Assembly (NCBI GenBank): GCA_036375355.1
Contig: DASURX010000051.1
Location: 1-44,381, forward strand
Length of the DNA: 44,381 nt
DNA from: Candidatus Limnocylindria bacterium
GTDB taxonomy: Bacteria; Chloroflexota; Limnocylindria; QHBO01
Reading direction: 5' to 3'
Each line of letters begins with the position of its first letter. Position 1 is the first letter of the stretch. A program made the translations under genes and the position numbers. The notes beneath the pieces were generated by a model. It did no database searches. It was not told where the DNA came from and saw only the letters and a program-made list of their open reading frames with translations. Positions 3,417-19,911 of the stretch are shown one piece after another.

Positions 3417-5675
3417 ATGCCCCCCAAGAAGAAGGCCGCGGGCGACCTCGTCATCGTCGAGTCGCCCGCCAAGGCGAAGACCATCGAACGCTACCTGGGC
3501 CCCGGGTACACCGTGCTGGCCTCGTACGGCCATGTCCGTGATTTGCCGCAGCGTGCCCTGGGAGTCGATGTCGACCACGACTTCGCGCTCCGCTACGAGC
3601 CGCTGAAGGAGCGCCGCCGCGAGCTGGAGAAGCTCGCCGACCAGGCGCGTCGGGCCGACCAGGTGTGGCTCGCCACCGACCTCGACCGGGAGGGTGAGTC
3701 GATCGCCTGGCACATCGCCGAATACGCGCACCTGCCCGAGGACCGCGTGCGGCGGGTGACCTTCAGCGAGATCACCCGGCCCGCCATCGAGCAGGCCTTC
3801 GCCAACCCGCGGAGCATCAACCAGGACCTGGTCAATGCCCAGCAGGCGCGTCGCGTGATCGACCGGCTGGTGGGCTACAAGCTGAGCCCGCTGGTGAGCA
3901 GCAAGATCCGGCGTGGTCTCTCCGCCGGCCGCGTGCAGAGCGTGGCGGTGCGCCTGGTCGTCGATCGCGAGCGAGAGATCGAGGCGTTCACGGCGGAGGA
4001 GTACTGGACCATCGCCGCCGAGCTGCGCCGGCAGGGCGTTGACGCGCGCTTCACCGCCGAGCTGACGCGCATCGACGGGGAGAAGGTGCGCATCGGCAGC
4101 GAGGCCGAGGCGCGCGAGCACGAGGAAACGCTGCGCACGGCGAGCTACCGCGTCAGCAAAGTCACCCGCACGCAGCAGAAGAAGGGGCCGCCGCCCCCGT
4201 TCACGACCAGCACGCTCCAGCAGGAGGCGTCGCGAAAGCTGGGCTTCGGCGCTCGCCGCACGATGAGCGTGGCGCAGAGCCTGTACGAGGGCGTGTCGCT
4301 GCCCGATGGCCAGGTCGGTCTCATCACCTACATGCGCACCGATTCGGTCGCCATGGCCTCCGGAGCGGTGGCCGATGCTCGCAAGCTGATCGCGGCGCGG
4401 CATGGCGACGCGTTCGTGCCGGAGCGGCCGAATGCCTACCGCACCCGCACCCGCGGGGCGCAGGAGGCGCACGAGGCGATCCGGCCGTCGAGCTTCGCGC
4501 GCACCCCCGATTCGGTGCGTGCGCACCTCAAGCCCGACGAGCTGCGCCTGTACGACCTGATCTGGCGCCGCGCGCTAGCCTCGCAGATGGCACCGGCGCG
4601 CTTCGACCAGGTCGGCGTCGACGTGGAAGCCGGCAGCTACACGCTGCATGCGGGCGCCCGGAAGCGGGTCTTCGACGGCTACCAGGCGCTCTACGTGGAG
4701 GGCCGCGACGACGAGGAGGACGAGCGCCTGGCGGTCCTGCCCGAGCTGGGCGAGGACGAGCCGCTCGACCTGGTCGGGGTGAGCTCCGAGCAGCACTTCA
4801 CGCAGCCGCCGCCGCGGTACACCGAGGCGACCCTGATCCGGGCGCTGGAGGAGCACGGCATCGGCCGGCCGTCGACCTACGCGCCGACGCTCGAGACCAT
4901 CCGTCAGCGCGGCTACGTGACGATCAAGGACCGGCGCCTCTTCCCGGAGGAATCGGCCTTCCGCGTCACCGATCTGCTCAAGGAGCACTTCCCGGAGATC
5001 GTCGACCTGCAGTTCACGGCGCGGATGGAAGACCAGCTGGACGAGGTCGCGCGCGGCGAGCACGAATGGGTGCCGATGGTTCGCGAGTTCTGGGTCCCGT
5101 TCAGCGAGCAGGTGTCGCGCGGCCGCGAGACGATCGAGAAGCAGGTCGAGCGCACGGACATCCCGTGCCCGATCTCCGGCGAGAAGGGCGACGTGCTGGT
5201 GAAGCGCTTCGGGCGCAACGGCTGGTTCTACGGCTGCTCGGGCTATCCGGAGTGCAAGTACACCCAGCCGCTGCCCGGCGAGGAGCCGGAGGCGCCCGCC
5301 GATCTCCCCGGCGTGGGCGAGGTCTGCCCGCTGTGCAACCAGGGCACGCTGGTGGCGAAGCGCGGCCGCTTCGGCCCGTTCGTCGGCTGCGACCGCTACC
5401 CGGAGTGCAGGTACATCAAGAAGGACGCGCAGCCGGCCGCGGAGCGCTTCGGCACCTGCCCCAAGTGCGGCAAGGGGACGGTCGTCACCAAGCGCGCCCG
5501 GCGCGGCCGCCGGCCGTTCTGGGGCTGCGATCGCTACCCCGACTGCGACTACGCCACCTGGACCAGGCCGGCGCCCGACGGACAGGCGCCCGGCGACGCC
5601 GAGCCGAGGCATGTCGAGCCGGGGGCGGCGAAGGATGGTGAGCCCGCGGTCGCCGCGGGCGCGACGCGTGACTGA
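3417..5675 (+). CDS. topA: DNA topoisomerase I with three C-terminal C4 zinc ribbons
   Basis: 752 aa. TOPRIM N-terminus [18 protein letters not shown] and active-site region [10 protein letters not shown]. Three CxxC...CxxC ribbons are present (CPISG...CSGYPEC, CPLC...CDRYPEC, CPKC...CDRYPDC). Confidence 0.97.
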
Positions 5676-6636
5676 CGAGCCGCTGGAGCGCTTCCTGTCA
5701 CACATGGCGGCCCGGAATGCGTCGCCACGCACGATCGTGGAGTACCGGCGCAACGCGGGCGAGTTCCTGGAGTTCCTGTCGCGGCGGGGCGTGGATTGGC
5801 GCACTCCGGATCGCGGCGCCGTGCGCGCGTACCTTGCCGGCCTGGCCGACCGCGGCCTGAGCGCCTCCTCCGTCGGCGGACGGCTGGCCGCCATTCGCAG
5901 CCTGTACCGGCACGCCACCCGCCAGGGCTGGATCGACGCCGATCCGCTGGCCGGCGTCCGCTCCCCACGCCGACCCGGGCGCCTGCCGCGAGTGCTGTCG
6001 GTCGAGGATGCCGCCCGGCTGGTAGAGGCGCCGGCCCGCGTCCCGCGCCGCACCCGGCGACGGGTGGATGCCGAGCTGGCCGATGCGCTCGCGCGCCGCG
6101 ATGCTGCCCTGCTGGAGCTGCTGTACGCCACCGGCATGCGCATCAGCGAGGCGGCCTCGCTGACTCTCGATCGCGTGGACGTCGGGCGCCGCCGCCTCCG
6201 CGTGGTGGGTAAGGGGTCCAAGGAACGCGAGCTGATCTTCGGGCACGCGGCGCAGTCGGCGCTGGAGGCCTACCTGCGCGCAGGACGGGCGACGCTCGCC
6301 GCGCACGCCGGCGCTCCCTCGCCGGCGGTGTTCCTGAACGCCAACGGTGGGCCGCTCTCCGCGCGCGGCGCCCGGCTGGTGGTAGACCGATGGGTCGAGG
6401 CCGCCGGCCTCGCCAACCGGACCTCGCCGCACACGCTGCGCCATTCGTTCGCCACCCACCTACTCGAGGGCGGCGCCGACCTGCGCAGCGTGCAGGAGCT
6501 GCTGGGCCACGCGAACCTGGCCACGACCCAGATCTACACCCACCTCTCCGACGCAGCTCTGCGCAGCGCCTACCGCACCGCCCACCCGCGCTCGCGGGAT
6601 ACCTCCCGCGCGGCGCGGACCGACGCGGAGCGGTGA
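5668..6636 (+). CDS. xerC: Tyrosine recombinase XerC/XerD family
   Basis: Core motifs: N-terminal SAM-like domain ([18 protein letters not shown]) and [39 protein letters not shown] chose the GTG at 5668, which overlaps topA by 8 nt. The in-frame ATG at 5611 would overlap topA by 65 nt and remains an alternative. Confidence 0.88.
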
Positions 6637-8306
6637 GCGGCCCGCTGGAGGGGACCCCGCCGGTTCCGCCGGCGGATCCCGGTCCCCGGCTCGACGACGC
6701 TCCGCGGCGGGCGCAGGAGGAGGAGAGCCAGGCGCCATCGGTGGCGCGGGTGCTCGCCCAGGCCAGCCTGGTGCTCACCGTCGCGGCGCTGGCCAGCCGG
6801 CTGCTGGGATGGGTGCGCCTGCTGGTCATCGGCTCGCAGTTCGGTGCGACCAGGGAGCTGGATGCCTACTTCGCCGCCTTCCGCATCCCGGACGCGATCT
6901 TCCAGCTGGTGGTGGCCGGCGCGCTGTCGGCGGCGCTGATTCCCGTCTTCTCCGGCTACCGCGCCCGCGAGCAGGAGCGCGAGGCGTGGGCACTGGCCAG
7001 CAGCGTGATCAACCTGGTGGTCATCACCCTGGCCGCCCTGTCGCTGCTGATGGCCATCTTCGCGCCGATGCTGGTCCCGATCGTGGCGCCCGGCTTCGAC
7101 GCTCCCACCACGGAGCTGACGGTACGCATGACGCGGGTCATGCTGCTCAGCCCCGTGCTCATCGGCATGGGCGCGGTGGTGAGCGGGATCCTCAACTCCT
7201 ACGAGCGTTTCACGGTGCCCGCCTTGGCGCCGCTGGCCTACAACCTGGCCATCATCGCCGCCGCCATCGTGCTGGCGCCGCTGATGGGCGTGGAGGGCCT
7301 GGCCGTGGGCGTGGCGGTCGGCTCGCTGCTGCACCTGGCCATCCAGCTGCCGGCGCTCGGCCGGGTGGGACAACGCTACGACCTGACCATCGGCCTTTCG
7401 CACCCCGGCGTGCGCAAGGTGGCCTGGCTGATGGGGCCGCGAATGCTGGGCCTGGCGGCCGGCCAGCTGAACTTCATCGTCTCGACCGTGCTGGCTTCCG
7501 GCCTGCCGGAGGGCAGCATCACCGCCTACAACTACGCGTTCCAGCTCAGCCAGATCCCCGTCGGCGTCCTGGGCGTGAGCGTCGCCACCGCGCTCTTCCC
7601 GACGCTGAGCCGCGACGCGGCACTCGGCCGCGTGGGCGAGATCCGGCGCCAGGTGGCCAACAGCCTGCGCCTGCTCATCTTCCTGGCCGCGCCGCTGACG
7701 GCCACGATGGTCGTCCTGGCCGGGCCGATCGCATCGGTCTTCTTCCAGTACGGCCTCTTCAGCGAGCGCTCCGCGGAGCGCACCGCCGGGGCGCTCGTCT
7801 TCTTCGCCCTGGGCCTGGGCGGGCACATCGTGGTCGGCGTCCTGACCCGCGCCTTCTACGCCATGCAGGACACCCGCACGCCCGTGCTGTGGGCGGTGAT
7901 CGCGGTGGCCATCAACGTCCCCCTGATGGCCTGGCTGGTCGGACCGATGGGGGTGGAGGGGCTCGCGCTGGCCCTGTCCATCAGCGCCGTGCTGGAGGTG
8001 ATCGGCCTGGTCTGGGCGCTGCACCGTCGGATCGAGTCGGTGGAGGAGCGCGACGTGCTGCGCTCGGCGGGTCGCTCGCTGGTGGCAGCCGCCGCGGCCG
8101 CGCTGGTCATGCTCGGCGGGCTGACGCTCACCAACGCATGGCTGCCGGGAGTGCTGGACAACGGGCTCGGCCGCCTGGTTGCCGTTGCGGCCCTGGCCGC
8201 CGCCGGGTGGGCCCTGTACCTGCTGGTCGCCACGGCCCTGCGCGCGCCGGAGGTGGCACAGCTCCGCTCGCTGCTGTCGCGCCGGCGCCGGCGATCGGAA
8301 CCATGA
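6633..8306 (+). CDS. murJ: Lipid II flippase MurJ (MviN)
   Basis: Polytopic membrane protein with the MurJ N-terminal signature [33 protein letters not shown]. The GTG at 6633 overlaps the xerC stop (GTGA). An alternative GTG at 6741 lies after a GGAGGAGGAGAG run. The upstream part of ORF 6390.. is an out-of-frame shadow of xerC. Confidence 0.9.
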
Positions 8307-9403
8307 TCCGGCTCCGCCGGGCCGTCGACGCCGATCGCGAGGCGTGGCAGTCGTTCCTGGCCGTCACCGCCTCCGGCGACTTCCTGCACGACTGGGCCTG
8401 GGCCGATGTCGCTGCCTTCGACGGGCAGCCGCAGCTCCGCTGGATCGCGGAGGAAGGTGAGCGGTTGGTGGCCATCGTCGCGGCGCAGGTCAGGTCCCTG
8501 CCGCTCGGGCGCAGCTTCTGGTACGTGCCCCACGGCCCGGTGATGGACTACGCCCACCCCGCGGCGAACGAGCGGCTGCGGGCGCTGGCGATGGGGCTGC
8601 GCGAGATGGCGCGCCGCGAGCGCGTGATCGCCATCAAGCTCGAGCCGCGGCTGGAGCGCGGCGACCCGCAGGCTGCGGCCTTCGCGCGGCTCGTCCACGA
8701 CCCGCGCACGCTGCAGGTGGGGCAGACGCGCCTGGTCGAGCTGGGCGACGACGATGCGATGCTCGCGGCGCTCGACAAGGACACCCGCTACGCGGTGCGC
8801 CGCGCGGAGCGGGAAGGCGTGAGCGTGACCCGCACGACCGACGCCGCGGACCTGCGCGCCATCGACGAGCTGCACGCGCTCGTGCTCGAGACGCAGGCGC
8901 GCGCGGGCTTTCCGCGACCCGCGCTGCAGCGCTACCGGGTCGCCTGGCGCGGCCTGGCGGCCGCCGGCCGCGCGGCGATCTTCGAGGCGCGGCACGAGGG
9001 CAGGCTGCTGGCCAGCGGCATGCTGGTTCGCGAGGGAGACCGCTCGTTCTACCTGTTCGCCGGCTCGATCCGCGAGGAGCGCGGCGAGCCGAAGCGCTAC
9101 GCGTCGTACGCGCTCCAGTTTGCGATGATGCAGCACGCCCGCGATTCCGGGGCGCGGGTCCATGACCTGTGGGGCATCGCGCCCGAGGGCGCCGGTCCAG
9201 AGCATCCGTGGCACGGTGTCGGGCTCTTCAAGAAGGGCTTCGGCGGGCGGCCGGTGACGTGGGCCGGCACCTGGGACATCGTGGTGGACCCGGCGCTGTA
9301 CCGGCTGCGAGGCGTGCTGGCCGAGGGGCGAGCGGCGGTGCGATCGACCGGGGGCGCGGCACTGCGCACGGTCCGGCGGTGGACGACGGGGAGAAGCGGA
9401 TGA
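8303..9403 (+). CDS. FemAB-family aminoacyl-tRNA-dependent peptidoglycan bridge-forming transferase, paralogue 1
   Basis: 366 aa. The ATG overlaps the murJ stop (ATGA, 8303-8306). The sequence shows FemX-like features (DREAWQSFL...DFLHDWAWADV, WYVPHGPV, DKDTRYAVRRAEREGV, FYLFAGS...YASYALQFAMM, LFKKGFGG). It has no long coiled-coil insert. Confidence 0.85.
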   Translation: MIRLRRAVDADREAWQSFLAVTASGDFLHDWAWADVAAFDGQPQLRWIAEEGERLVAIVAAQVRSLPLGRSFWYVPHGPVMDYAHPAANERLRALAMGLREMARRERVIAIKLEPRLERGDPQAAAFARLVHDPRTLQVGQTRLVELGDDDAMLAALDKDTRYAVRRAEREGVSVTRTTDAADLRAIDELHALVLETQARAGFPRPALQRYRVAWRGLAAAGRAAIFEARHEGRLLASGMLVREGDRSFYLFAGSIREERGEPKRYASYALQFAMMQHARDSGARVHDLWGIAPEGAGPEHPWHGVGLFKKGFGGRPVTWAGTWDIVVDPALYRLRGVLAEGRAAVRSTGGAALRTVRRWTTGRSG

Positions 9404-10920
9404 CGGTCCTGCAACGGCGGATGGGGCTCGGGGAGCTGACGGACATCATCGGTCCCGAACGGGTGGTCGGCATGCCGGTGGGCGAGGTGACGGCGCTGGC
9501 CTACGACTCGCGCGCAGTGACGGAGGGAACCCTCTTCTTCGCCGTGCCGGGCGTACACGTGGACGGCCACGACTACGCGCGCGAGGCAGCGCAGCGCGGT
9601 GCGCTGGCCGTCGTGGCGGAGCGCGAGATCGAGGGTCTGCCCATTCCCCAGCTGATCGTGGAGCGCACCCGCAACGCGCTGGCCGATGCGGCTGATGCCT
9701 GGTTCGAGCATCCCTCGCAGCACCTGCACGTCATCGGCATCACCGGGACCGACGGAAAGACCACGACCGCGTTCCTGGCCAATGAGGTGCTGCGCGCCGG
9801 TGGCCATCGGCCGGGGATGATCGGCACCGTGGCGCTCCTGGTCGGCGACGAGATGGTGCCGAACCCCAACCGCAACACCACCCCGGAGGCGCTGGAGCTG
9901 CAGCAGCTGCTGGCGCGGATGGTTGCCGCCGGCAATGACGGGGTGGTGATGGAGGCCACCTCGCACGGCCTCGCCCAGGCCCGCGTGCGCAACGCCCGCT
10001 TCGCGGTCGGCATCCTGACCAACCTCACCAGCGAGCACCTGGAGTTCCACGGCTCGCTCGACAACTACCGGGCCGCCAAGGCAATGCTGTTCGAGGAGGC
10101 GCCGATCTCGATCCTGAACGCCGACGACCCCTCGTTCGACTACTTCCGCGGCCGCGCCCGCGACCGGGTGCTGACCTACGCGCTGGAGGCCGATGCCGAC
10201 CTGCGCGCGACCGAGGTCGACGCGCGCGGCGACGGCACCACCTTCACGCTCCACGCGCCCGGCTGGTCGGGACGCGTGCATGTCCCGATCCCCGGGTCGT
10301 TCAACGTGCACAACGCGCTGGCGGCGATGGCGCTGGCCCATGTCGAAGGGGTCGACCTGGCCGTCGCGGCGGACGCGATCGCGCGCATCCGGGGCGTGCC
10401 GGGGCGGATGGAGACCGTCGATCTCGGCCAGCCATTCAGCGTGGTGGTCGACTACGCCCACACCGCCGACTCGCTCGGCAAGGTGCTCCGTGCCCTCCGC
10501 CCGCTGGCCACGGGCCGCCTGATCGTCGTCTTCGGCTCGGCCGGTGAGCGCGACCCGACCAAACGGGCGCCCATGGGCCGCGTGGCGGCCGAGCTGGCCG
10601 ACGTCGTGGTCGTGACCGACGAGGATCCCCGGCTGGAGGACCCGCGCACCATCAACGAGCAGATCGCCGCCGCCGCCCGGGCGGCCGGAGCCCGCGACGG
10701 CGAGGACCTGTTCGTCATCGACGACCGCCCCGCCGCGATCGCCCACGCGGTCGACCTGGCCGGTGAGGGCGACGTCATCCTGCTCGCCGGCAAGGGCCAC
10801 GAGAAGACCATCATCTACGGCAGCGAGGGCCGATGGTGGGACGAGAAGGAGGTCGCGCGGCGCGCGCTGCGGGCGCGCGGCTTCGAAGGAGAGACAGCGG
10901 TGCCCGGCTCACATGCCTGA
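9400..10920 (+). CDS. murE: UDP-N-acetylmuramoyl-L-alanyl-D-glutamate:diamino-acid ligase MurE
   Basis: 506 aa. The ATG overlaps the stop of fem paralogue 1 (ATGA, 9400-9403). Motifs: LAYDSRAVTEGTLFFAVPGVHVDGHDY, P-loop GITGTDGKTTT, EATSHGL, DYAHTADSL, and the specificity region TDEDPR. Confidence 0.95.
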   Translation: MTVLQRRMGLGELTDIIGPERVVGMPVGEVTALAYDSRAVTEGTLFFAVPGVHVDGHDYAREAAQRGALAVVAEREIEGLPIPQLIVERTRNALADAADAWFEHPSQHLHVIGITGTDGKTTTAFLANEVLRAGGHRPGMIGTVALLVGDEMVPNPNRNTTPEALELQQLLARMVAAGNDGVVMEATSHGLAQARVRNARFAVGILTNLTSEHLEFHGSLDNYRAAKAMLFEEAPISILNADDPSFDYFRGRARDRVLTYALEADADLRATEVDARGDGTTFTLHAPGWSGRVHVPIPGSFNVHNALAAMALAHVEGVDLAVAADAIARIRGVPGRMETVDLGQPFSVVVDYAHTADSLGKVLRALRPLATGRLIVVFGSAGERDPTKRAPMGRVAAELADVVVVTDEDPRLEDPRTINEQIAAAARAAGARDGEDLFVIDDRPAAIAHAVDLAGEGDVILLAGKGHEKTIIYGSEGRWWDEKEVARRALRARGFEGETAVPGSHA

Positions 10921-11986
10921 GCTGCGCGCCTGGCGCATGACCGATCGCGCCGCATGGGACGCCTTCGTCGAGTCAGCGCCGTACCGCTCCTTCCCGCAGC
11001 TGTGGGCCTGGGGCGAGCTGCGCGAGTCGTTCGGCTGGCGGCCGCTGCGGATCGCGGTTGGCGACGATCCCGATCGCCCGCCGCTGGCGGTGGCGCAGGT
11101 CCTCCTCCGGCGCGTGCCGGCGCTCGGCTGGCAGCTCGCCTACGTGCCGCGCGGGCCGGTCGGCCACCTGGACGAGGCGCCCGTGCGTGACGCAATGGTC
11201 GCCGCGCTCCGCTCGCTGGGACGCAGCGACGGGGTCGCGACCCTCAAGCTCGACCCGGAGGCCACTCCCGATTCTGGGTTCGGCGCCGCGCTGCTCGCGC
11301 CGCCGTGGCGGGCGGCCGCCAAGGTGCAGCCGCCGCGCACCCGGGTCGTGGACCTGGCGGCGGGGGAGGAGGAGCTGCTGGCCGCGCTCAGGAAGAAGCA
11401 CCGCCAGTACGTCCACAAGGCGGAGCGCGCCGGGATCGGCGTGGAGCGGCTGGACGGCAGCACCGACTCCGCCACCGCGCGGCAGGCACTCGACGATTTC
11501 CACGCGATCTACGCCTATACCGCCGAGCGTGCAGGATTCGTCGCCCGGGCGCGCCACTACGACGACCGAGTTTGGTCGCTCTTCGCCCCGTCGGGCCACG
11601 CGCGCCTGGCGTTCGCCACGCTGGATGGCCGGCGCGTCGCCACGCTCTTCCACTTCACCTGCGGCGACCGTGCCGCGGAGGCGTTCGGCGGCATGACCGA
11701 CGACGGCGCCGAATCGCGGGCGAACTACCTCCTGAAGTGGGCGTCGATCATCGGCTTCAAGCAGGAGGGCTTCGCGGTCTACGACCTCTGGGGCCTGGCC
11801 ACCGGCGGGATCGCGCAGTTCAAGGAGGGGTTCGGCGGCCGGCACGTCGATTACGTCGGTGCGCGCGACCTTCCGCTGCGGGCCGCCGAGGACGCGGCCC
11901 TGCGGCTGCTGCTCCCCGCCTACGGCATCGCCCAGCGCACGCGGCTGCGGCTCATCGGCCGCCGGCTGGCAGGGAGCGAGGACTGA
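10913..11986 (+). CDS. FemAB-family transferase, paralogue 2
   Basis: 357 aa. The start overlaps the murE 3' end by 8 nt. It aligns with paralogues 1 and 3 (DRAAWDAFV...QLWAWGEL, AYVPRGPV, RKKHRQYVHKAERAGI, QFKEGFGG). Confidence 0.85.
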   Translation: MPELRAWRMTDRAAWDAFVESAPYRSFPQLWAWGELRESFGWRPLRIAVGDDPDRPPLAVAQVLLRRVPALGWQLAYVPRGPVGHLDEAPVRDAMVAALRSLGRSDGVATLKLDPEATPDSGFGAALLAPPWRAAAKVQPPRTRVVDLAAGEEELLAALRKKHRQYVHKAERAGIGVERLDGSTDSATARQALDDFHAIYAYTAERAGFVARARHYDDRVWSLFAPSGHARLAFATLDGRRVATLFHFTCGDRAAEAFGGMTDDGAESRANYLLKWASIIGFKQEGFAVYDLWGLATGGIAQFKEGFGGRHVDYVGARDLPLRAAEDAALRLLLPAYGIAQRTRLRLIGRRLAGSED

Positions 11987-12016
11987 TGCCCGTGGCGCGG
12001 GATCCGCATCTGTGCC

Positions 12017-12045
12017 GGCCCGCAGAACGTGAACGTTGACGGGCC
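12017..12045. terminator. Possible bidirectional hairpin between convergent fem paralogue 2 and the APH-like gene
   Basis: GGCCCG...CGGGCC encloses the inner palindrome AACGT-GA-ACGTT. Confidence 0.3.
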
Positions 12046-12067
12046 TGACCCGGCGGTAGCCTAGGCT

Positions 12068-13078
12068 TCAGAAGGTGCCATCGTCCCAGCTGCCCCACGG
12101 CCCGTCGAGCAGGTAGAGGCGCAGGCCGTAGGGGACCGAGTCGACATACTCGTCACGGAGCGCCGCGGGCATGCCGAGCACGCTGCGCCGCCAGGCGAGG
12201 GAGCGCTGGACGGTCCCTGTTCGGCGGGCGACCGATGCAGCATCCCGGAGCACCGCGCGGCTCCCGTGGCGGCTCCAGGGCTCGAGGTACGCATCGAGCA
12301 GCCGCGTGACCTCCGAGCCGTTCGGCGCCCAGCCGTTTCGATACGCCAGCGAGCGCAGCGCCACGACGAGCGAGTGGAACGGGTGCGCGATGCAGGCGTC
12401 GCCCCAGTCGAATACGACGTGGTCTTCGCCGCGCAGGAACGCGTTCCCGTCGTTGAGGTCGTCGTGCTGGAGCGTCTCGGGGATCCCGGCAGACGCCAGC
12501 CGCTCGCACTCCGCGGCGAACCTCGCCAGGCCTTCGCGCAGACGGCCGCGCTGATCCTCACCCACGCCGCCCTCCTGGCCCAGCATCAGCAGCTCCGGCT
12601 CCTCCACGAGCGCGGCCAGCTGCCCGGGAAGCGTGGCCAGCCGCAGGTCGGGAACGCCCATCGCCAGCAGCTGGTCAATCCTGCCGGCGAAGGCGACCTG
12701 GATCTCCGCGTAGCGCGGCAGCAGCGCCTCCCAGTGCTCGACAACGCGTCCGTCGTCCAGCTCGCGCAGCTTGATCCCCGCATCGCGGGTCAGCGCCCAG
12801 CCGCGACCCGGATCGGTGGCCACGACCTCGACCGTCCGGTCCGGCCACGAGGCGGCGAGGAGCGGCGTCAGGCGCGCCTCGAAGGCGCCCTCCGGCTGCG
12901 TTCCCTTGAACCACAGCACGCCGGCATCGGTCGGGATTCGCCAGGCGGTCGACCACCAGAAGACATGCGGCCGCTCGATCGGGCCGCGCTGGCGCAGGCC
13001 CGCGTCCGCAAGCGAGCCGTGAATCCAGGCCTCGGCATCGGCCTGGAAGGCAGGGTCATGCCAGGGCAGATCGGTCAT
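12068..13078 (-). CDS. Aminoglycoside/choline-kinase-like phosphotransferase (APH family), substrate unknown
   Basis: 336 aa from the ATG at 13078. Catalytic loop LQHDDLNDGNAF, metal-binding VVFDWGDACIAHP, and a putative ATP lysine in VLWFKG. The longer ORF to 13291 is Arg/Pro-rich and has no homology-like features. Confidence 0.8.
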   Translation of the reverse strand: MTDLPWHDPAFQADAEAWIHGSLADAGLRQRGPIERPHVFWWSTAWRIPTDAGVLWFKGTQPEGAFEARLTPLLAASWPDRTVEVVATDPGRGWALTRDAGIKLRELDDGRVVEHWEALLPRYAEIQVAFAGRIDQLLAMGVPDLRLATLPGQLAALVEEPELLMLGQEGGVGEDQRGRLREGLARFAAECERLASAGIPETLQHDDLNDGNAFLRGEDHVVFDWGDACIAHPFHSLVVALRSLAYRNGWAPNGSEVTRLLDAYLEPWSRHGSRAVLRDAASVARRTGTVQRSLAWRRSVLGMPAALRDEYVDSVPYGLRLYLLDGPWGSWDDGTF

Positions 13079-13087
13079 GGGTGGCGA

Positions 13088-13093
13088 ATCGTA
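13088..13093 (-). promoter_or_regulatory. Candidate -10 (TACGAT on the minus strand) for the APH-like gene; near-leaderless
   Basis: The hexamer lies 9 nt upstream of the ATG at 13078. It sits back-to-back with the fem paralogue 3 promoter candidate. Confidence 0.3.
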
Positions 13094-13113
13094 CGCCCTC
13101 CGGCCCGGTCGTC

Positions 13114-13119
13114 TAGGCT
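13114..13119 (+). promoter_or_regulatory. Candidate -10 (TAGGCT) for fem paralogue 3; near-leaderless
   Basis: The hexamer ends 8 nt before the ATG at 13128. There is no SD. Confidence 0.3.
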
Positions 13120-13127
13120 CTGGCCCG

Positions 13128-14177
13128 ATGCCTCCCATCGTCCGCCGCGCCACCGATGCCGACCGCCCCGCCTGGGATGCCTTCGTCGCCTCCCGCCCCG
13201 AGGCCGACCTGCTCCAGGCGTGGGCCTGGGGCGAGTGCACCGCCCTGGCCGGCGAGCCTCCGATTCGCATCCTGGTGGAGGATGGCGGCACGATGCGCGG
13301 CGTGGCCCAGGCGCTGATGCGCCCGGCCGGCTTCGGGAAGCAGGTCGCTTACGTGGCACACGGTCCCGTCTGGGAGCGATCGGCGCCCGACGCCGAGCGC
13401 GTCTTCGCATGGCTGACCCAGGGCCTGCGCTCCCTGGCCCGCAAGGAATCGGCGCTGGTCGTGAAGATCGACCCGCGCAACGAGCCGGGCCAGCCGCTCG
13501 AGGTCGCCGCGCTGGTCGCGGAGCACGGCCTGCGCCGCGCGCCGGACCTGCAGGCGCCCACCACCCGTATCGTCGACCTGCTCGACGGCGGCGAGCAGCT
13601 CGAGGCGTCGTGGCATGCCGACGCCAGGCGGCTGATGCGCCGCGCCGAGCGCGAAGGCACCGAGGTGAGCATCGGCCGCAGCGCCGACCCGGAGCAGATC
13701 GAGGTCCTGCACGACCTGCTGGCGCGCACCGCGGAGCGTTCCGAGTTCCGCGTCCGCGCACCGGAGTTCCTCTCGCGGCTGGCCGAGGAGCTCAGCGCGA
13801 CAGGGGGCTGGTACCTGGGCATCGCCCGCGTCCAGGGCACCCCGATCGCGGCGATGGCCTTCCCACGCGTCGGAGACCGCGCCTACTACCTGTACGGCGC
13901 CCTCCTGCGCGACGAGCGCTACAAGCACAACTACGGCGCCCACGCGACGATGGCCGCCATGCTGAAGGCGCTGGCCGCCGATGGCTGCCGCTCGGTCGAC
14001 ATGTGGGGCGTGGTCGAGCCGGACGATCCCGATGCCGACCCCGCCTGGAAGGGCTTCTCCGACTTCAAGCGCACGTTCGGCGGCGCTCCGCTGCGCCACC
14101 CCGGCCTGTTCGACCTCGTCACCGATCCGTTCTGGTACCGGCTCCGCTCGCTCCGCGAGCGCCTCCTGCGCCGCTAG
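13128..14177 (+). CDS. FemAB-family transferase, paralogue 3
   Basis: 349 aa. It aligns with the other two paralogues (DRPAWDAFV...LLQAWAWGEC, AYVAHGPV, HADARRLMRRAEREGT, YYLYGAL...YGAHATMAAML, DFKRTFGG). Confidence 0.85.
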   Translation: MPPIVRRATDADRPAWDAFVASRPEADLLQAWAWGECTALAGEPPIRILVEDGGTMRGVAQALMRPAGFGKQVAYVAHGPVWERSAPDAERVFAWLTQGLRSLARKESALVVKIDPRNEPGQPLEVAALVAEHGLRRAPDLQAPTTRIVDLLDGGEQLEASWHADARRLMRRAEREGTEVSIGRSADPEQIEVLHDLLARTAERSEFRVRAPEFLSRLAEELSATGGWYLGIARVQGTPIAAMAFPRVGDRAYYLYGALLRDERYKHNYGAHATMAAMLKALAADGCRSVDMWGVVEPDDPDADPAWKGFSDFKRTFGGAPLRHPGLFDLVTDPFWYRLRSLRERLLRR

Positions 14178-14887
14178 GCCACCTCGGACGAGGAGCGCAG
14201 GACGCCCACCGCGGCGACGATGCCGATCGCCATGCCGATCCCGAACATCGGCCACATGAAGTCGGTCGGCACCCGGCCGGCCAGGACGACCTCCGCGTTG
14301 AGCAGGAAGCTGCCGATCACCACCACTCCGCCGAGCAGCAGAGTCCCCAGCTGCGCCCGCGACATGCGCGGTCGGGCGCCGCGCCGGATGCGGCCGATCA
14401 GCGCCAGGCCGAAGCCGATCAGCGCCAGGCTGACTGCCAGCGGCGCCCACACCGGCCCGGCCCAGGGCAGCGGGATGAGGAAGAGCAGGTCCCAGGTGGT
14501 CAGGCCGCCGGGCCAGCCGGAGAAGACCCACAGCCAGAAGTAGTAGGCGATGTCCCAGGCGCCGAAGACGACCGCGGCCCAGGCCAGCCGCTCGAGGCCG
14601 CCCCGCCCGGCGATCCAGCCCACGGCGGCGATCATCACCAGCGTCGCGATCTCGCGGCCGAGCTCGAGCCAGCCGAGCAGGCCCGCGTTCCGGCTGGTCA
14701 TGTCCAGCGGGAAGACGTCGCCGGTGGCGGCGTCGAGCGCGTGACGCAGGTACACGACCGATGCGGACTCGAGGTAGGCCATCGCCACCGCGTAGGCCAG
14801 CACCGAGGCCGTGAGCCCCAGCAGCGCACGGCGCCCGGTGGGCGGCCGCGGCATCGGGTCAGATGCCTCGAGCTCGCTCCACGTCAT
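14174..14887 (-). CDS. Hypothetical polytopic membrane protein (about 6 TM helices), Trp-rich
   Basis: This is only the 3' third of the 1025-aa minus-strand ORF. It starts at MTWSELEAS and has six hydrophobic segments, including WDIAYYFWLWVFSGWPGG and LLFLIPLPWAGPVWAPL. The rest of that ORF is antisense to relA. Confidence 0.6.
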   Translation of the reverse strand: MTWSELEASDPMPRPPTGRRALLGLTASVLAYAVAMAYLESASVVYLRHALDAATGDVFPLDMTSRNAGLLGWLELGREIATLVMIAAVGWIAGRGGLERLAWAAVVFGAWDIAYYFWLWVFSGWPGGLTTWDLLFLIPLPWAGPVWAPLAVSLALIGFGLALIGRIRRGARPRMSRAQLGTLLLGGVVVIGSFLLNAEVVLAGRVPTDFMWPMFGIGMAIGIVAAVGVLRSSSEVA

Positions 14888-14962: not shown

Positions 14963-14971
14963 CTCTTGACC

Positions 14972-17188
14972 ATGGATCTGGCTCGCCTGCGGGCGGCCCC
15001 GGCCGCCGTGGTGCAGCGCATCGCGCGCACCCAGCCAGCGGCGGAGCCGTCCCACACGATCACCGACGTCGTCGAGGAGGCGCGTCGCCACCGGCCGAGC
15101 ATCAACATCGGCCTGATCGAGCGTGCCTACGACTACGCGCAGCAGGCGCACGAGGGCCAGATGCGCGCATCGGGCCTGCCCTACGTCACCCATCCGGTCG
15201 AGACGGCGTACTACCTCGCCACGCTGCAGATGGACGCGGAGACGATCGCGGCCGCGCTGCTGCACGACGTGCCGGAGGACACCGAGCTCACCATCGCCGA
15301 TATCGAGAAGCGCTTCGGGCGCGAGGTGGCGCGGCTGGTGGACGGCGTCACCAAGCTGTCCAAGTTCGGCAGCGCGCGGTCGATGGAGGAGCAGCAGGCC
15401 GAGAACATCCGGAAGATGTTCATGGCCATGGCCGAGGACGTGCGGGTGGTCATCATCAAGCTCGCCGATCGGCTGCACAACATGCGCACCCTGGGCTTCC
15501 TGGCCGCGGAGAAGCAGCAGCGCATCGCCCGCCAGACGATGGAGATCTACGCCCCCCTGGCCCACCGGCTGGGGATGTGGCAGATCAAGTGGGAGCTGGA
15601 GGACCTGTCCTTCAAGTACATCGAGCCGGACAAGTACCGCCAGCTGGTCGAGATGCTCGCCGACCGTCGCAAGGTGCGCGAGAGCTTCATCAACAAGAGC
15701 ATCAGCATCCTGCGCAAGGAGCTGGGCAAGGTGGCCATCGAGGCCGAGATCAGCGGCCGACCCAAGCACCTGTACTCGATCCACAAGAAGATGGAGCGCA
15801 AGGGCGCCGAGTTCAGCGAGATCTACGACCTGCACGCCATCCGGGTGCTGGTCGAGGACGTCAAGGACTGCTACGCGGCGCTGGGCGTGGTGCATTCCAT
15901 CTGGAGGCCGATCCCGGGGCAGTTCGACGACTACATCGCCATGCCCAAGGCAAACATGTACCAGTCGCTGCACACCGCCGTGATCGGGCCGGACGCCAAG
16001 CCGCTGGAGGTGCAGATCCGGACGCGCCACATGCACGACGTGGCCGAGGCAGGCATCGCCGCGCACTGGCGCTACAAGGAGGGGTCTCGCGGGGATCGCC
16101 GCTACGACGAGAAGCTCGCCTGGGTGCGCCAGCTGATCGACTGGCAGCGCGAGGTTGCCGATGCCACCGAGTTCGTCGAGGGCCTCAAGCTGGAGGTGTT
16201 CCAGGACCAGGTTTTCGTGTTCACGCCCAAGGGCGACGTCAAGGACCTGCCCGCCGGCGCAACACCGCTCGACTTCGCCTACCGGATTCATACCGACGTC
16301 GGGCACCGCACCATCGGCGCAAAGGTCAACAACCGGCTGGTCCCGCTGGACTACAAGCTGCGCAACGGCGACATCGTCGAGATCATCACGACCAAGGCCG
16401 CGCACGGGCCGAGCCGGGACTGGCTGAACATCGTCCAGACCAATGCCGCGCGCGAGAAGATCCGGCAATGGTTCAAGCGCCAGCAGCGGGACGAGAACAT
16501 CAGCCAGGGCAAGGACCTGCTCGACCGGGAGCTGAGGCGCCTGGCGCACGAGACGCTGGCCTCGACCGACACGACCCGGCTGGAGGCGATCGCCCAGCAG
16601 GCGCACTACCGCGAGCTGGACGACTTCTACGCGGCGATCGGCTATGGCGCGGTCTCGCCCGCGTCGGTCGTCTCGAAGCTGGAGATCCACGACGACGCCG
16701 CCATCGCCCTGCCCGAGGTGGCGCCGCCGGCCGAGTCGGTGTCGACCACCGGCGTCCGGGTGAAGGGCGTCGGGGACCTGCTGGTGCGCTTCGCCAACTG
16801 CTGCTCGCCGATCCCGGGTGACTCGATCACCGGCTACGTGACCCGGGGCAAGGGCGTGACGGTGCACCGCGCCAACTGCCCGTCGGTCCTGTCCGAGCGG
16901 GACATCGAGCGGCTGATCGACGTGGAGTGGGAGAAGGTCGACCAGGCCACCTATCCGATTACGGTGCGCATCGAGGCGCTGGATCGTCCCGGCGTGCTCA
17001 ACGAGATCACGAACGTGGTCGCCGAGCACAAGGTGAACATCGTGGCCGCCTCCATCGGGACGCACCCCGACGGCACGGCCACGGTCACCGCCACGCTGAA
17101 GGTCACCTCGCTCCAGCAGCTCTCCAAGGTGCTGACCCGCATCGAGCGCATCCGGGACATCACCTCGGTCACCCGCGAGGCGCGCTAA
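14972..17188 (+). CDS. relA: Bifunctional (p)ppGpp synthetase/hydrolase Rel (RelA/SpoT homologue)
   Basis: HD hydrolase domain (HPVETAYYLA...LLHDVPEDT), synthetase domain (RPKHLYSIHKKMERK, YQSLHTAV), TGS domain and C-terminal ACT domain. I prefer the ATG at 14972 because an extended -10 lies just upstream. A TTG at 14966 is an alternative. Confidence 0.96.
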   Translation: MDLARLRAAPAAVVQRIARTQPAAEPSHTITDVVEEARRHRPSINIGLIERAYDYAQQAHEGQMRASGLPYVTHPVETAYYLATLQMDAETIAAALLHDVPEDTELTIADIEKRFGREVARLVDGVTKLSKFGSARSMEEQQAENIRKMFMAMAEDVRVVIIKLADRLHNMRTLGFLAAEKQQRIARQTMEIYAPLAHRLGMWQIKWELEDLSFKYIEPDKYRQLVEMLADRRKVRESFINKSISILRKELGKVAIEAEISGRPKHLYSIHKKMERKGAEFSEIYDLHAIRVLVEDVKDCYAALGVVHSIWRPIPGQFDDYIAMPKANMYQSLHTAVIGPDAKPLEVQIRTRHMHDVAEAGIAAHWRYKEGSRGDRRYDEKLAWVRQLIDWQREVADATEFVEGLKLEVFQDQVFVFTPKGDVKDLPAGATPLDFAYRIHTDVGHRTIGAKVNNRLVPLDYKLRNGDIVEIITTKAAHGPSRDWLNIVQTNAAREKIRQWFKRQQRDENISQGKDLLDRELRRLAHETLASTDTTRLEAIAQQAHYRELDDFYAAIGYGAVSPASVVSKLEIHDDAAIALPEVAPPAESVSTTGVRVKGVGDLLVRFANCCSPIPGDSITGYVTRGKGVTVHRANCPSVLSERDIERLIDVEWEKVDQATYPITVRIEALDRPGVLNEITNVVAEHKVNIVAASIGTHPDGTATVTATLKVTSLQQLSKVLTRIERIRDITSVTREAR

Positions 17189-17219: not shown

Positions 17220-18494
17220 GTGAACCGCCAGATCAGCGCCGCTCGCGGCACGCGCGACCTGCTGCCCGAGGAGGGGCCAGCCTGGAACGCGATGGAGGCG
17301 CTGGCCCGCGACCTGTCGCGCCGCTACGCGCTGGACCGGGTGGACACGCCGCTGTTCGAGAGAGTGGAGCTCTTCGCGCGCGGCCTGGGCGAGTCGTCGG
17401 ATGCCGTGGAGAAGGAGATGTTCCGGGTCGCCGGGGCCGCCGGATCCGAGGAGGAGCGCGCCGAGTGGGCGCTGCGGCCGGAGCCCACGGCGGGCATCGC
17501 GCGGGCCTACGTGGAACATGGCCTGCACGTCCGCCCCGGGCCGCTGCGGCTCTGGATGCTGGGGCCGATGTTCCGCTACGACCGCCCGCAGGCGGGTCGC
17601 TACCGCCAGTTCACGCAGTGGGACGTCGAGGTCGTGGGCGACCCGGGGCCGATGGTCGATGCCGAGGTGATCGAGCTCGCGGCGCGCTTCTTCGCCGAAG
17701 CGGGGATCGCCGGCGTGATCGTGCACCTCAACTCCATCGGCGACGGCACCTGCCGTCCCGGCTACCGCCAGGCATTGATCGACTACTTCGCCGGCCACGA
17801 GGCGCGCCTGAGCGAGGACTCGCGCCGTCGCCTCCGCGTCAACCCGCTCCGGGTCCTGGACGACAAGCTGCTCGACCCGGATCTCGCCGCCGGTGCTCCG
17901 CGCAGTGCCGACCACCTGTGTGCGGCCTGTGCAGAGCACTTCGCGGTCGTGCGCGAGCTGCTCGATGGGCTGAAGGTCAACTACGTCATCGACCATCGGC
18001 TGGTGCGCGGCCTCGACTACTACACGCGTACGACGTTCGAGCTCTTCGTCGCGGGCCGGGAGGGACAGCAGCAGGCTCTCGCCGGCGGTGGCCGCTACGA
18101 CGGCCTGATCGAGCTGCTCGGCGGACGTCCGACCCCGGGCATCGGCTTTGGGCTGGGCATCGACCGTGCCGTGCTGGCGGCCGAGGAGCAGGAAGCGCCG
18201 TTGTCCGCCGCGGAACCGCTGGTGGCCCTTGTCGGCGCCACTCCCGACGACTTTGCCCAGCGCCTGCGGGTGGCCTCGAGCCTCAGGGATGCCGGCGTGC
18301 GGGTGCGGCCCGACGGGAGCCGTCGCAGGCTCGGCAAGCAGTTGGAGTCGGCTGTCAAGGCCGGGGCACGCTGGGCCGTCATCGTCGGCGAGGAGCTCGG
18401 GCGTGGCGCCGTCGTGCTGCGGGACCTGGAGCGGGGTGAGCAGCGCGAGACAGCCCTCGTCGACGTGCCCGCGGTACTTGCGCGGGAGCGCTAG
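17220..18494 (+). CDS. hisS: Histidine--tRNA ligase
   Basis: GTG start. Class II motifs: GTRDLLPEE, FRYDRPQAGRYRQFTQWDVEVVG, GGGRYDGL. A C-terminal anticodon-binding domain is present. Confidence 0.95.
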   Translation: MNRQISAARGTRDLLPEEGPAWNAMEALARDLSRRYALDRVDTPLFERVELFARGLGESSDAVEKEMFRVAGAAGSEEERAEWALRPEPTAGIARAYVEHGLHVRPGPLRLWMLGPMFRYDRPQAGRYRQFTQWDVEVVGDPGPMVDAEVIELAARFFAEAGIAGVIVHLNSIGDGTCRPGYRQALIDYFAGHEARLSEDSRRRLRVNPLRVLDDKLLDPDLAAGAPRSADHLCAACAEHFAVVRELLDGLKVNYVIDHRLVRGLDYYTRTTFELFVAGREGQQQALAGGGRYDGLIELLGGRPTPGIGFGLGIDRAVLAAEEQEAPLSAAEPLVALVGATPDDFAQRLRVASSLRDAGVRVRPDGSRRRLGKQLESAVKAGARWAVIVGEELGRGAVVLRDLERGEQRETALVDVPAVLARER

Positions 18495-19781: not shown

Positions 19782-19896
19782 CGCGCCGATGATCGCAGCC
19801 GGCGCAACCGTCGCGGCATGGGCCGATGGTCCGCGGACCGTGTCGGGCCGTTCAGCGAGGGACCAACCCAGGCGCTCGAGCGCGGCGGTGCTCCGC

Positions 19897-19902: not shown

Positions 19903-19911
19903 TCGCGTCCC

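Follow-up and report, generated by a model that had tools for sequence, protein, structure and literature searches.

The analysed DNA, a window of 44,381 nucleotides, belongs to the MAG of an uncultured soil Candidatus Limnocylindria bacterium (Chloroflexota, class Limnocylindria). The gene content of the window is of a housekeeping kind, including topA, xerC, relA, hisS, aspS, alaS, efp, and dxs. Next to xerC lies murJ, and around murJ and murE are three genes for members of the Fem transferase family, denoted Fem1, Fem2, and Fem3 (Table 1). All three reading frames had been proposed in the original prediction and translate cleanly over their full length. Existing annotation agrees with the assignment, as PGAP names all three as FemA/FemB family proteins and IMG also lists them as Fem transferases. 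No dedicated tRNA genes were found near the Fem locus.

Table 1. Peptidoglycan-related genes of the Fem locus, in window coordinates.
Feature	Product	Position	Strand	Length	Model match	NCBI protein
murJ	Lipid II flippase	6633..8306	+		Pfam MurJ, E 5e-103; TIGR01695, 372 bits (cutoff 235.6)	
Fem1	Predicted Weissella-FemX-type transferase	8303..9403	+	366 aa	PF02388, 90.6 bits	HEX6139285.1
murE	Ligase for the third stem-peptide residue	9400..10920	+	506 aa	TIGR01085, 518.6 bits	
Fem2	Predicted FemX-type transferase	10913..11986	+	357 aa	PF02388, 92.7 bits	HEX6139287.1
Fem3	Predicted FemX-type transferase	13128..14177	+	349 aa	PF02388, 64.4 bits	HEX6139289.1

The Fem1 gene is joined to its neighbors at both ends. 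Direct reading of the sequence finds one ATGA (8303-8306) that holds the murJ stop and the Fem1 start, a second (9400-9403) that holds the Fem1 stop and the murE start, and an 8-nt overlap (10913-10920) between the murE stop and the Fem2 start. The proposed start/stop fusion of two Fem genes to murJ and murE is therefore borne out at the nucleotide level. The beginning of murJ is uncertain; the GTG at 6633, which forms a GTGA overlap with the xerC stop, is likely, and GTG codons at 6741 and 6750 are alternatives. For Fem2, the ATG at 10937 is an alternative start. Because xerC, murJ, Fem1, murE, and Fem2 overlap one another by 4-8 nt, these five genes look like one translationally coupled operon. 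Fem3 lies outside this operon in the window, where it is transcribed alone and the start of a divergent APH-like gene is about 50 bp away.

Fem1, Fem2, and Fem3 are FemABX-family enzymes with a double-GNAT fold of the Weissella FemX type, and transferase activity is predicted for each. Their matches to the FemAB family model PF02388 (E 1.3e-25, 2.8e-26, and 1.1e-17, respectively) all exceed the gathering score of 24 bits, and each also matches the Pfam family Acetyltransf_6. The three align with one another over their full length at 34-36% identity and carry the motifs that had been quoted for them, DADRxAW, WAWG/A, YVPxGPV, RAEREG/KAERAG, and FKxGFGG. Among NCBIfam models, the best for each protein is the Weissella FemX equivalog (NF047883). 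The scores of 79.6, 66.2, and 47.9 bits for Fem1, Fem2, and Fem3 are far under its cutoff of 500, so none is an equivalog and the donor and acceptor specificity of Weissella FemX is not transferable to the Fem proteins.

Searches against PDB sequences rank FemX enzymes first for all three proteins, with Staphylococcus aureus FemX (6snr) the best or co-best match (E 1.6e-15 for Fem1, 7.8e-20 for Fem2, and 2e-18 for Fem3). The FemX of Weissella viridescens (FemX_Wv) is matched at E 9e-16 by Fem1 and 2.4e-08 by Fem2, and matches of Fem1 and Fem2 to S. aureus FemA are marginal (E 0.2-0.5). The AF2 model of Fem1 (pLDDT 88.5) gives the same picture in three dimensions. Its top Foldseek matches are FemX_Wv and S. 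aureus FemX (TM 0.73-0.83), with TM 0.75/0.83 for the former and a TMq of 0.80 for the latter, and the fit is weaker to FemA (0.64), the streptothricin enzymes Sba18/Sbb17 (0.63/0.79), and MprF C-domains (~0.5). The double-GNAT fold is thus seen in the Fem1 model; for Fem2 it is supported by sequence alignment to Weissella FemX (residues 15-297), and for all three by their alignment with one another.

The double-GNAT fold is common to tRNA-dependent transferases that work outside peptidoglycan, such as PacB, VlmA, DhpH, Sba18/Orf11, and aa-PG synthases. At least one paralogue might accordingly work on a lipid, on some other polymer of the envelope, or in a natural-product pathway, and the structural resemblance of Fem1 to Sba18/Sbb17 and MprF, together with its loss of several FemX_Wv precursor-binding residues (below), is in keeping with such a role. 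This explanation is nevertheless very improbable. Similarity to FemX is far stronger than to Sba18, which is matched in sequence by Fem1 only (E 1.5e-05, against about 1e-15 for FemX enzymes), and the model for PEP-CTERM-associated FemAB proteins (TIGR03019, cutoff 260.35) gives Fem1 31.2 bits, Fem2 39.9 bits, and Fem3 no match. The grouping with non-peptidoglycan transferases that would have spoken against a cell-wall role is thus not seen. The window holds housekeeping genes instead of a biosynthetic cluster, and the paralogue whose pocket diverges most, Fem1, overlaps murJ and murE at its two ends.

The coiled-coil arm of about 60 residues is absent from Fem1, Fem2, and Fem3, which at 349-366 aa are shorter than staphylococcal FemA and FemB (~420 aa). 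Residues 13-333 of Fem1 align end to end with residues 12-329 of the 335-aa Weissella FemX with no long insertion, and the Fem1 model has no helical hairpin where the coiled coil would be. In the matches of Fem1 and Fem2 to 6snr, the alignment ends at chain residue 237 and restarts at 295, skipping the coiled coil. The original prediction had taken the missing arm to make the proteins FemX-like. The absence stands, but a coiled coil is also present in S. aureus FemX (residues 235-297) and in Streptococcus pneumoniae MurM (residues 242-293) (PMC8280954), and the proteins are therefore Weissella-FemX-like rather than FemX-like in general.

The catalytic residues of the family are kept. In FemX_Wv, Phe304 stacks on A76 and is followed by Lys305, and equivalents of this pair are present in 81/81 Fem1, 61/62 Fem2, and 24/25 Fem3 orthologues, being F309-K310 in the Fem1 of the window. 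K305 is the catalytic lysine (PMC12945691). D108 of FemX_Wv is Glu in Fem1 and Asp in Fem2 and Fem3.

The three paralogues differ in the pocket that holds the acceptor. The acceptor site of FemX_Wv, a cavity for the precursor, is lined by K36, W39, R211, and Y215 (PMC8280954). The equivalents of K36 in Fem1, Fem2, and Fem3 are Ala, Arg, and Thr; those of W39 are Gln, Trp, and Glu; those of R211 are Pro, Arg, and Arg; and those of Y215 are Arg, Tyr, and Phe. Fem2 is therefore the paralogue that retains most of the acceptor-site residues of FemX_Wv and MurM, Fem3 retains part, and Fem1 has lost all four. In Fem2, the set equivalent to K36/W39/D108/R211/Y215/F304-K305 reads R/W/D/R/Y/FK in 61-62 of 62 orthologues, and the residues retained correspond to those with which MurM contacts lipid II, namely K35, W38, R215, and Y219 (PMC8280954). 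At many positions, conservation reaches at least 90% inside each orthologue group, yet the residue differs between the Fem1, Fem2, and Fem3 groups. The loss of the four acceptor-site residues in Fem1 may point to an acceptor of another kind.

The arrangement of the locus is strongly conserved. The order murJ-Fem1-murE-Fem2 is kept in every one of 80 Limnocylindria loci with enough sequence to reveal it, and in distant lineages murJ, murE, and three Fem domains still lie between xerC and relA, with the order shuffled or the Fem proteins fused. The fusions include a 706-aa Fem2-Fem1 protein and a 711-aa tandem. With this conservation across the class and beyond, and the translational coupling to murJ and murE, the peptidoglycan context first proposed for the three genes holds. 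The three-paralogue set is present in the window as described, but across class Limnocylindria universal presence is limited to Fem1 and Fem2. Fem3 is patchy, being found in 27 of 51 informative loci. It is at the locus in 18 of the 42 that span Fem2 to relA and missing from the other 24, which means that a third step is not universal.

Patchy presence, separate transcription in the window, and a divergent APH-family phosphotransferase next door are what might be expected if one paralogue, most plausibly Fem3, were a protective or resistance Fem (Lif/Epr or VanK-like) that alters the bridge against an endopeptidase or antibiotic. An immunity role of the Lif/Epr kind had been offered as an alternative for one of the paralogues and fares poorly, and a protective Fem3 is quite improbable. 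The APH gene adjoins Fem3 here and in one other locus only (L008). The usual neighbors of Fem3 are Fem2 and relA; in 14 loci it lies 8-70 bp beyond Fem2 in the same orientation, with relA immediately downstream, and in three distant lineages (L081, L084, and L086) Fem3-type genes are found within the murJ/murE block itself. Among the scanned open reading frames of the window there is no peptidase for a Lif/Epr-type linkage, neither of the M23 type nor another bridge-cleaving endopeptidase, and there are no van genes.

In the phylogeny, Fem2-type proteins form a clade with bootstrap 100/100, and Fem1 and Fem3 are sister subfamilies within a Fem1+Fem3-type superclade (79/100). Both clades hold members from distant lineages, so the split between them is old. 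A sister relationship of Fem1 and Fem3 is what a duplication followed by a change of donor specificity would leave, and the paralogues could then act in parallel, using different aminoacyl-tRNAs to modify one common target, either the unbranched precursor or a single position of the branch. Precedents are the S. pneumoniae MurM alleles, which add Ala or Ser, and the Fmh proteins of staphylococci. All three Fem proteins are of the FemX_Wv type, with none FemA/FemB-like, and Fem3 is dispensable at the locus in over half of the class, both of which agree with parallel action. If true, the bridge would be short, heterogeneous, or condition-dependent, not longer. Parallel action is still unlikely, because the systematic differences between the paralogues line the acceptor cavity (K36, W39, R211, and Y215 of FemX_Wv) and because two to three Fem domains kept together in distant lineages, some of them fused, fit consecutive pathway steps better.

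MurE adds the third residue of the stem peptide. The motif of the window MurE is EDPR (context TDEDPR) instead of the DNPR of meso-DAP ligases, in which Asn and Arg bind the distal DAP carboxylate (PMC3829189). In PDB alignments, meso-DAP enzymes have DNPR and the Thermotoga maritima Lys ligase has DDPR; the window MurE keeps the Arg and replaces the Asn with Asp as in the latter, departing from the meso-DAP type. EDPR is kept in about 70 related loci and, beyond these, in distant lineages. In cultured Chloroflexota the diamino acid is Orn, alone or together with Lys, and not meso-DAP (PMC6210107, PMC3504966, PMC3035262, PMC3236041). For stem residue 3, L-Orn or L-Lys is thus more probable than meso-DAP. 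However, the window MurE also scores above cutoff with two equivalog models for DAP ligases (NF001126, 484 vs 373; NF001124, 476.9 vs 476), and with the Arg kept, residue 3 may yet be meso- or LL-DAP.

The best reading of the locus, and a likely one, is that it encodes the sequential, tRNA-dependent building of a side chain of two to three residues on an Orn/Lys-type stem. The module would be the interpeptide-bridge part of peptidoglycan synthesis in a monoderm Limnocylindria bacterium. In this scheme, MurE would supply the diamino acid for position 3 of the stem. Fem2 and Fem1, joined by Fem3 in the loci that have it, would then draw aminoacyl groups from charged tRNA and pass each one to an amino group that is free on the precursor. 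The side-chain amine of residue 3 would accept the first of these groups and the N-terminus of the lengthening branch those that follow, so that the branch comes to hold two to three residues. The branched lipid II would be flipped by MurJ, and transpeptidases would take the branch N-terminus as acceptor to form an A3-type indirect cross-link. All three Fem enzymes probably act on peptidoglycan, sequentially and on different acceptors. Fem2 is suggested to act first because it keeps the precursor-binding residues of FemX_Wv and MurM, residue retention being the single basis for this order. Three Fem copies therefore predict a branched, bridge-linked wall, made by enzymes that are ordinary members of a known family.

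Known Fem systems resemble the locus in part. FemX_Wv, the UDP-MurNAc-pentapeptide:L-Ala transferase of W. viridescens (1NE9, 4II9), is alike in size (~335-366 aa), in the double-GNAT fold without a coiled-coil arm, in the F304-K305 pair of all three Fem proteins, in D108 as Asp or Glu, and, for Fem2, in the K36, W39, R211, and Y215 equivalents. It is unlike in sequence identity, which is only ~21-23%, and in the precursor-binding residues, several of which Fem1 and Fem3 are without. It differs, too, in that the locus described here has three paralogues set in a murJ/murE operon. To our knowledge, neither femAB nor fmhB of S. aureus is joined to murE or murJ. The logic proposed here is similar to that of S. 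aureus FemX, FemA, and FemB, which build pentaglycine sequentially on lipid II, in that several paralogues with their own acceptors make a multi-residue bridge, but the staphylococcal enzymes all have the ~60-residue arm (PMC8280954). In S. pneumoniae MurM/MurN and Enterococcus faecalis BppA1/BppA2, two enzymes add the first and second residue of a short branch, and the universal pair of Fem2 and Fem1 would be their analogue. As far as we know, neither a third paralogue nor coupling to murE and murJ is a feature of these two systems.

We know of no cultured member of class Limnocylindria, and the suggestion that bridge chemistry is undescribed in this lineage holds for these uncultured bacteria. 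It does not extend to the phylum, where a multi-residue bridge is known from Ktedonobacter. Sphaerobacter has an A3beta peptidoglycan with Orn-beta-Ala (PMC3035262), Herpetosiphon and Nitrolancea have Orn (PMC6210107, PMC3504966), and Ktedonobacter racemifer has Orn peptidoglycan with a Ser/Gly bridge (PMC3236041). These chemotypes share the monoderm envelope, the non-DAP diamino acid, and indirect cross-links with what is proposed here; they are chemical data from other classes. A bridge of about three residues with Ser and Gly, as in Ktedonobacter, would be the expected product of a system with three Fem enzymes.

The three FemAB-family proteins of the window, termed Fem1, Fem2, and Fem3, are encoded next to murJ and murE. 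The original prediction of three such reading frames was borne out as written, with coordinates, uninterrupted translations, quoted motifs, and gene junctions all checked. Read from the sequence, the murJ/Fem1 and Fem1/murE junctions are ATGA overlaps and the murE/Fem2 junction is an 8-nt overlap. Upstream, the probable GTG start of murJ lies on the xerC stop (a probable GTGA overlap, 6633–6636), which suggests translational coupling of the site-specific recombinase gene xerC with the cell-wall operon. A 4-nt xerC/murJ overlap is also called in L081, a locus from a more distant lineage. Fem3 is set apart in the window, about 50 bp from the start of a divergent APH-like phosphotransferase gene. 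The GC content is 70–75% along the whole window, and a promoter and terminator consensus scan of 11900–14400 for the Fem3 transcription unit found none, which is expected at 72% GC and uninformative. Staphylococci possess non-proteinogenic tRNA-Gly as a dedicated tRNA type; ARAGORN detected no dedicated tRNA genes in the window.

Features of the window and of related loci (L-numbers, loci; P-numbers, proteins from the cluster search)
Feature	Locus	Position	Strand	Remarks
Big_5/CAP protein	window	1702-3327	+	
topA	window	3417-5675	+	
xerC	window	ends 6636	+	
murJ	window	about 6633-8306	+	probable start GTG 6633
Fem1	window	8303-9403	+	366 residues, uninterrupted
murE	window	9400-10920	+	
MurE motif TDEDPR	window	10615-10632		
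Fem2	window	10913-11986	+	357 residues, uninterrupted
APH-family phosphotransferase	window	13078-12068	minus	PF01636, E 4e-11; convergent with Fem2, divergent from Fem3
Fem3	window	13128-14177	+	349 residues, uninterrupted
Membrane protein, polytopic	window	14174-14887	minus	roughly 235 aa; convergent with Fem3; no Pfam match
relA	window	14966-17188	+	
hisS	window	17220-18494		after relA
424-aa ORF	window	18507-19781	minus	no Pfam match
aspS	window	19717-21708		
LytR-CpsA-Psr (LCP) family protein	window	23038-24537	+	
alaS	window	27811-30513		
YceG/MltG-like protein	window	33942-35270	+	
Fem3, apparently truncated or split	L022	15261-15797		
Fem3, apparently truncated or split	L037	15364-16224 (and about 15808 onward)		
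Extra Fem subfamily	L081	9122-10225		
Extra Fem subfamily	L084	3890-5290; 6916-8004		
P0135	L086	3195-5330		two Fem domains; second of the extra Fem subfamily
P0128	L087	784-2904		706 aa

All three proteins match PF02388, with scores of 90.6, 92.7, and 64.4 bits for Fem1, Fem2, and Fem3 (E 1.3e-25, 2.8e-26, and 1.1e-17) against a gathering score of 24, and their pairwise identity of only 34–36% marks them as old paralogues, not recent copies. The top NCBIfam model for each is the Weissella FemX equivalog (79.6, 66.2, and 47.9 bits, far under the cutoff of 500), with lower scores for the PEP-CTERM FemAB model. Against PDB sequences, Fem1 aligns end to end with Weissella viridescens FemX (FemX_Wv; 13–333 against 12–329, E 9e-16) and also matches S. 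aureus FemX (E 1.6e-15), Fem2 matches the same two proteins (E 2.4e-08 and 7.8e-20, respectively), and Fem3 matches S. aureus FemX (E 2e-18). FemA matches are marginal (E 0.2–0.5), and the streptothricin enzyme Sba18 is matched by Fem1 only (E 1.5e-05). Evidence for the fold comes from an AlphaFold2 model of Fem1 (mean pLDDT 88.5, pTM 0.82), which superposes best on the FemX enzymes of Weissella (TM 0.75/0.83) and S. aureus (TMq 0.80), and less well on FemA (0.64), Sba18/Sbb17 (0.63), and MprF-type domains (about 0.5). Automatic annotation is already right at the family level: the NCBI entries HEX6139285.1, HEX6139287.1, and HEX6139289.1, from a MAG contig of 44,381 bp, are each named [quoted passage not shown] by PGAP, and orthologues in IMG carry FemX-type names.

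The alignment with the 335-residue Weissella FemX contains no long insertion, so the coiled coil is absent. Alignments to S. aureus FemX are interrupted between its chain residues 237 and 295, which flank the coiled coil of that enzyme at 235–297 (PMC8280954). A FemX-like character had been deduced from the missing coiled coil; this holds for Weissella FemX and fails for S. aureus FemX, which itself possesses a coiled coil, as does MurM (PMC8280954).

Functional residues were mapped by a full realignment of the Weissella sequence with 81 Fem1, 62 Fem2, and 25 Fem3 orthologues from the related loci; near D108 and R211, the pairwise HMMER alignment with FemX_Wv shows local shifts. Virtually all Fem1–3 orthologues retain the catalytic K305 of FemX_Wv (PMC12945691) and the F304 before it, and the D108 equivalent is Glu in Fem1 and Asp in Fem2 and Fem3. 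With the catalytic residues retained, all three proteins look catalytically competent. In Weissella FemX the precursor is bound by K36, N38, W39, Y103, T209, R211, Y215, and Y256, and the lipid II contacts K35, W38, R215, and Y219 of MurM occupy the same positions as K36, W39, R211, and Y215 (PMC8280954). The equivalents of these last four are Ala, Gln, Pro, and Arg in Fem1; Arg, Trp, Arg, and Tyr in Fem2; and Thr/Ser, Glu, Arg, and Phe in Fem3. Each is fixed inside its own orthologue group, and about 40 more positions are at least 90% conserved inside each group and different between groups. Such pocket differences would be expected under purifying selection for three different acceptors, and residue retention suggests that Fem2 is the paralogue still resembling a “first-residue” enzyme. 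Parallel action, in which the enzymes would use different donors on one acceptor, is weakened both by this divergence of the acceptor pockets and by the existence of Fem-Fem fusions.

The wider occurrence of the locus was followed in 80 loci of about 21 kb from GTDB species representatives, scanned with a Fem1 profile. Most belong to MAGs labelled Candidatus Limnocylindria, Chloroflexota, or Chloroflexia, and a few carry other labels. Those labelled Zixiibacteriota, Steroidobacteraceae, or Binatia (L019, L020, L032, L045, L052, L065, and L066) have the typical Limnocylindria gene order and a Fem1 identity of 65–73%, and are probably mis-binned or mislabelled. When the window proteins were searched against the 80 loci by tblastn, the order topA-xerC-murJ-Fem1-murE-Fem2 on a single strand was kept in every sufficiently long locus. 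The housekeeping context in the window, together with a Fem1 gene fused at both ends to murJ and murE, weakens the alternative of a role outside peptidoglycan. As to family and pathway, the functional reading originally given, a dedicated cross-bridge locus, is sound.

Of the 51 informative loci, 27 have Fem3, as do 18 of the 42 that extend from Fem2 to relA. In 14 loci it begins just 8–70 bp after Fem2, in others 0.4–4.6 kb is inserted between the two genes, and in 24 loci relA comes after Fem2 with no Fem3 between (a gap as short as 98–128 bp). In two long-read MAG loci, L022 and L037, Fem3 is apparently truncated or split across ORFs, which could be pseudogenisation or assembly indel errors. 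The APH-like gene next to Fem3 raises the alternative of a protective, Lif/Epr- or VanK-like enzyme, a reading weakened by the usual position of Fem3 within the operon and because no endopeptidase was found among the scanned ORFs of the window. Among the 80 loci, an APH-like gene stands between Fem2 and Fem3 only in the window and L008; it therefore looks like a local insertion outside the system, and Lif/Epr immunity was rejected for Fem3 on the same ground. This gene has no NCBIfam match. For the membrane protein encoded on the other side of Fem3, no counterpart could be detected among the 80 related loci.

Searching 1.84 billion cluster representatives with a profile gave 17,908 members of the family at a threshold of E ≤ 1e-3 and 1,861 at one of E ≤ 1e-30. 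In a neighbour-joining tree of the best matches of this search only, Fem2 falls in one clade (100/100 bootstrap), and Fem1 and Fem3 are sister groups within a second (79/100). Contigs of the nearest outgroup members (L081–L086; assemblies GCA_021790715.1 and GCA_936419345.1) carry the same chromosomal block, with 44–49% identity to the window for murE and 64–68% for relA, and with xerC upstream and relA downstream wherever the contig reaches. Each of these distant lineages has murJ, murE, and three Fem domains, rearranged: murJ, Fem2-type, murE, Fem3-type, third Fem, relA in L081/L082; Fem, murJ, Fem, Fem3-type, murE, relA in L084; and murJ, a 711-aa tandem Fem-Fem protein, Fem3-type, murE in L086. 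In the distant lineages, the extra Fem belongs to a separate subfamily, which is sister to the Fem2 type and includes the second domain of P0149. It was not detected in the Limnocylindria loci examined, where the third enzyme is a Fem1/3-type duplicate, and the lineage of the window reached three Fem proteins by duplication of this type.

Fusion is also found within Limnocylindria, on a contig (L087) whose relA is 87% identical to that of the window. Directly after murE, one continuous ORF encodes a single protein, P0128, in which a Fem2-like domain (54% identical) is joined to a Fem1-like domain (60% identical). Two complete Fem domains in one polypeptide of about 700–970 aa also occur in P0133, P0134, P0140, P0148, and P0149, as in P0135. 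To our knowledge, tandem Fem-Fem fusions have no earlier description. In view of the rearranged blocks and the fusions, what persists is a block of murJ and murE together with two or three Fem activities. Fusion, shuffling inside a fixed block, and 4-nt overlaps are strong indicators of one shared pathway for these proteins.

The MurE of the window is a clear family member (TIGR01085, 518.6 bits) and scores above the cutoffs of two equivalog models of DAP type, NF001126 and NF001124. It has the motif EDPR where mDAP enzymes in PDB alignments have DNPR; among characterised enzymes, the closest variant is the DDPR of the Lys-adding T. maritima ligase. The motif is DNPR in E. coli and DNPA in S. 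aureus, and the Asn and Arg of DNPR bind the distal carboxylate of DAP (PMC3829189). EDPR is kept in about 70 Limnocylindria loci and in L087, recurs as (D/N)EDPR in the distant L081, L084, and L086, and may mark specificity for Orn or Lys. A literature search for sequence determinants of Orn-adding MurE gave nothing usable. Cultured Chloroflexota contain Orn (or Orn with Lys) and not mDAP in Herpetosiphon (PMC6210107), Oscillochloris (bioRxiv 10.1101/2025.08.19.671072), and Nitrolancea (PMC3504966), and Sphaerobacter is Orn-type, A3beta, with a beta-Ala bridge (PMC3035262). From the motif and these chemotypes, we infer that position 3 more probably carries Orn or Lys than DAP, and the assignment stays at that strength since the protein keeps the Arg and scores above the DAP-type cutoffs. 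Bridge chemistry had been thought undescribed in the lineage, but the phylum already has an example of a mixed bridge of about three residues: Ktedonobacter has Orn:Ala:Glu:Ser:Gly of about 0.7:1.8:1.0:0.8:1.9, with Ser as the bridge N-terminus (PMC3236041).

Upon the demonstrated fold, catalytic residues, operon coupling, and conservation, a sequential mechanism can be proposed, the sequential action and the step order both being part of the proposal. MurE would add the diamino acid, and a Fem enzyme, most likely Fem2, would aminoacylate its side-chain amine from aminoacyl-tRNA. Fem1, plus Fem3 where present, would lengthen the branch; MurJ would then flip the branched lipid II, and transpeptidases would cross-link via the branch N-terminus. 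For Limnocylindria, this predicts A3-type, indirectly cross-linked peptidoglycan whose branch has two residues across the class and three in a subclade, and probably a non-DAP diamino acid in the stem. It seems rather unlikely, taken as a whole, that Limnocylindria and allied Chloroflexota build the entire two- to three-residue branch with only coiled-coil-less, Weissella-type Fem enzymes, perhaps entirely on soluble UDP-MurNAc-pentapeptide before the lipid stage, upon a stem residue added by an EDPR, possibly Orn-specific, MurE, with all encoded in one coupled murJ-fem-murE-fem unit and fused as Fem-Fem in some lineages. If true, the multi-step bridge synthesis known in staphylococci would have been solved a second time, with an independent organisation.

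The 16 kb downstream of the Fem genes include hisS, aspS, and alaS, with aspS and alaS 5 kb or more beyond Fem3, and hisS and aspS also follow relA in L081. As a clue to the donor they were rejected as housekeeping synteny, being found also in loci without Fem3. A tblastn search of plasmids with Fem2, for cultured relatives, gave no match above 30% identity; those in Azospirillum, Streptomyces clavuligerus, and Aerococcus are of no use for specificity.

Limnocylindria, once called Ellin6529 and treated in PMC10608941, are a widespread class of soil and freshwater in which no cultured member is known to us, and the literature searched held no relevant description of its cell wall or Fem genes, or of Fem in Chloroflexota. 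The locus is not a new kind of system, consisting of further FemABX members in a phylum with known bridged Orn-type peptidoglycan, and the understanding of Fem enzymes is not changed by it. Modest but concrete novelties are the class-wide murJ-fem-murE-fem operon; the two to three paralogues, all without a coiled coil and with distinct acceptor pockets; the natural Fem-Fem fusions; and the EDPR motif in MurE. Genomes with two Fem genes, genomes with three, and the fused Fem-Fem proteins, in all of which the coiled coil is missing, offer a natural series for the evolution of Fem acceptor specificity.

Elsewhere in the window, the protein encoded between dprA and topA is predicted to carry three Big_5 Ig-like domains and a C-terminal CAP (cysteine-rich secretory protein) domain, and an ORF with no Pfam match lies further downstream, after hisS. 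The YceG/MltG-like protein is a further cell-envelope gene product, and the LCP family protein, of a type that attaches wall polymers, fits a monoderm envelope.
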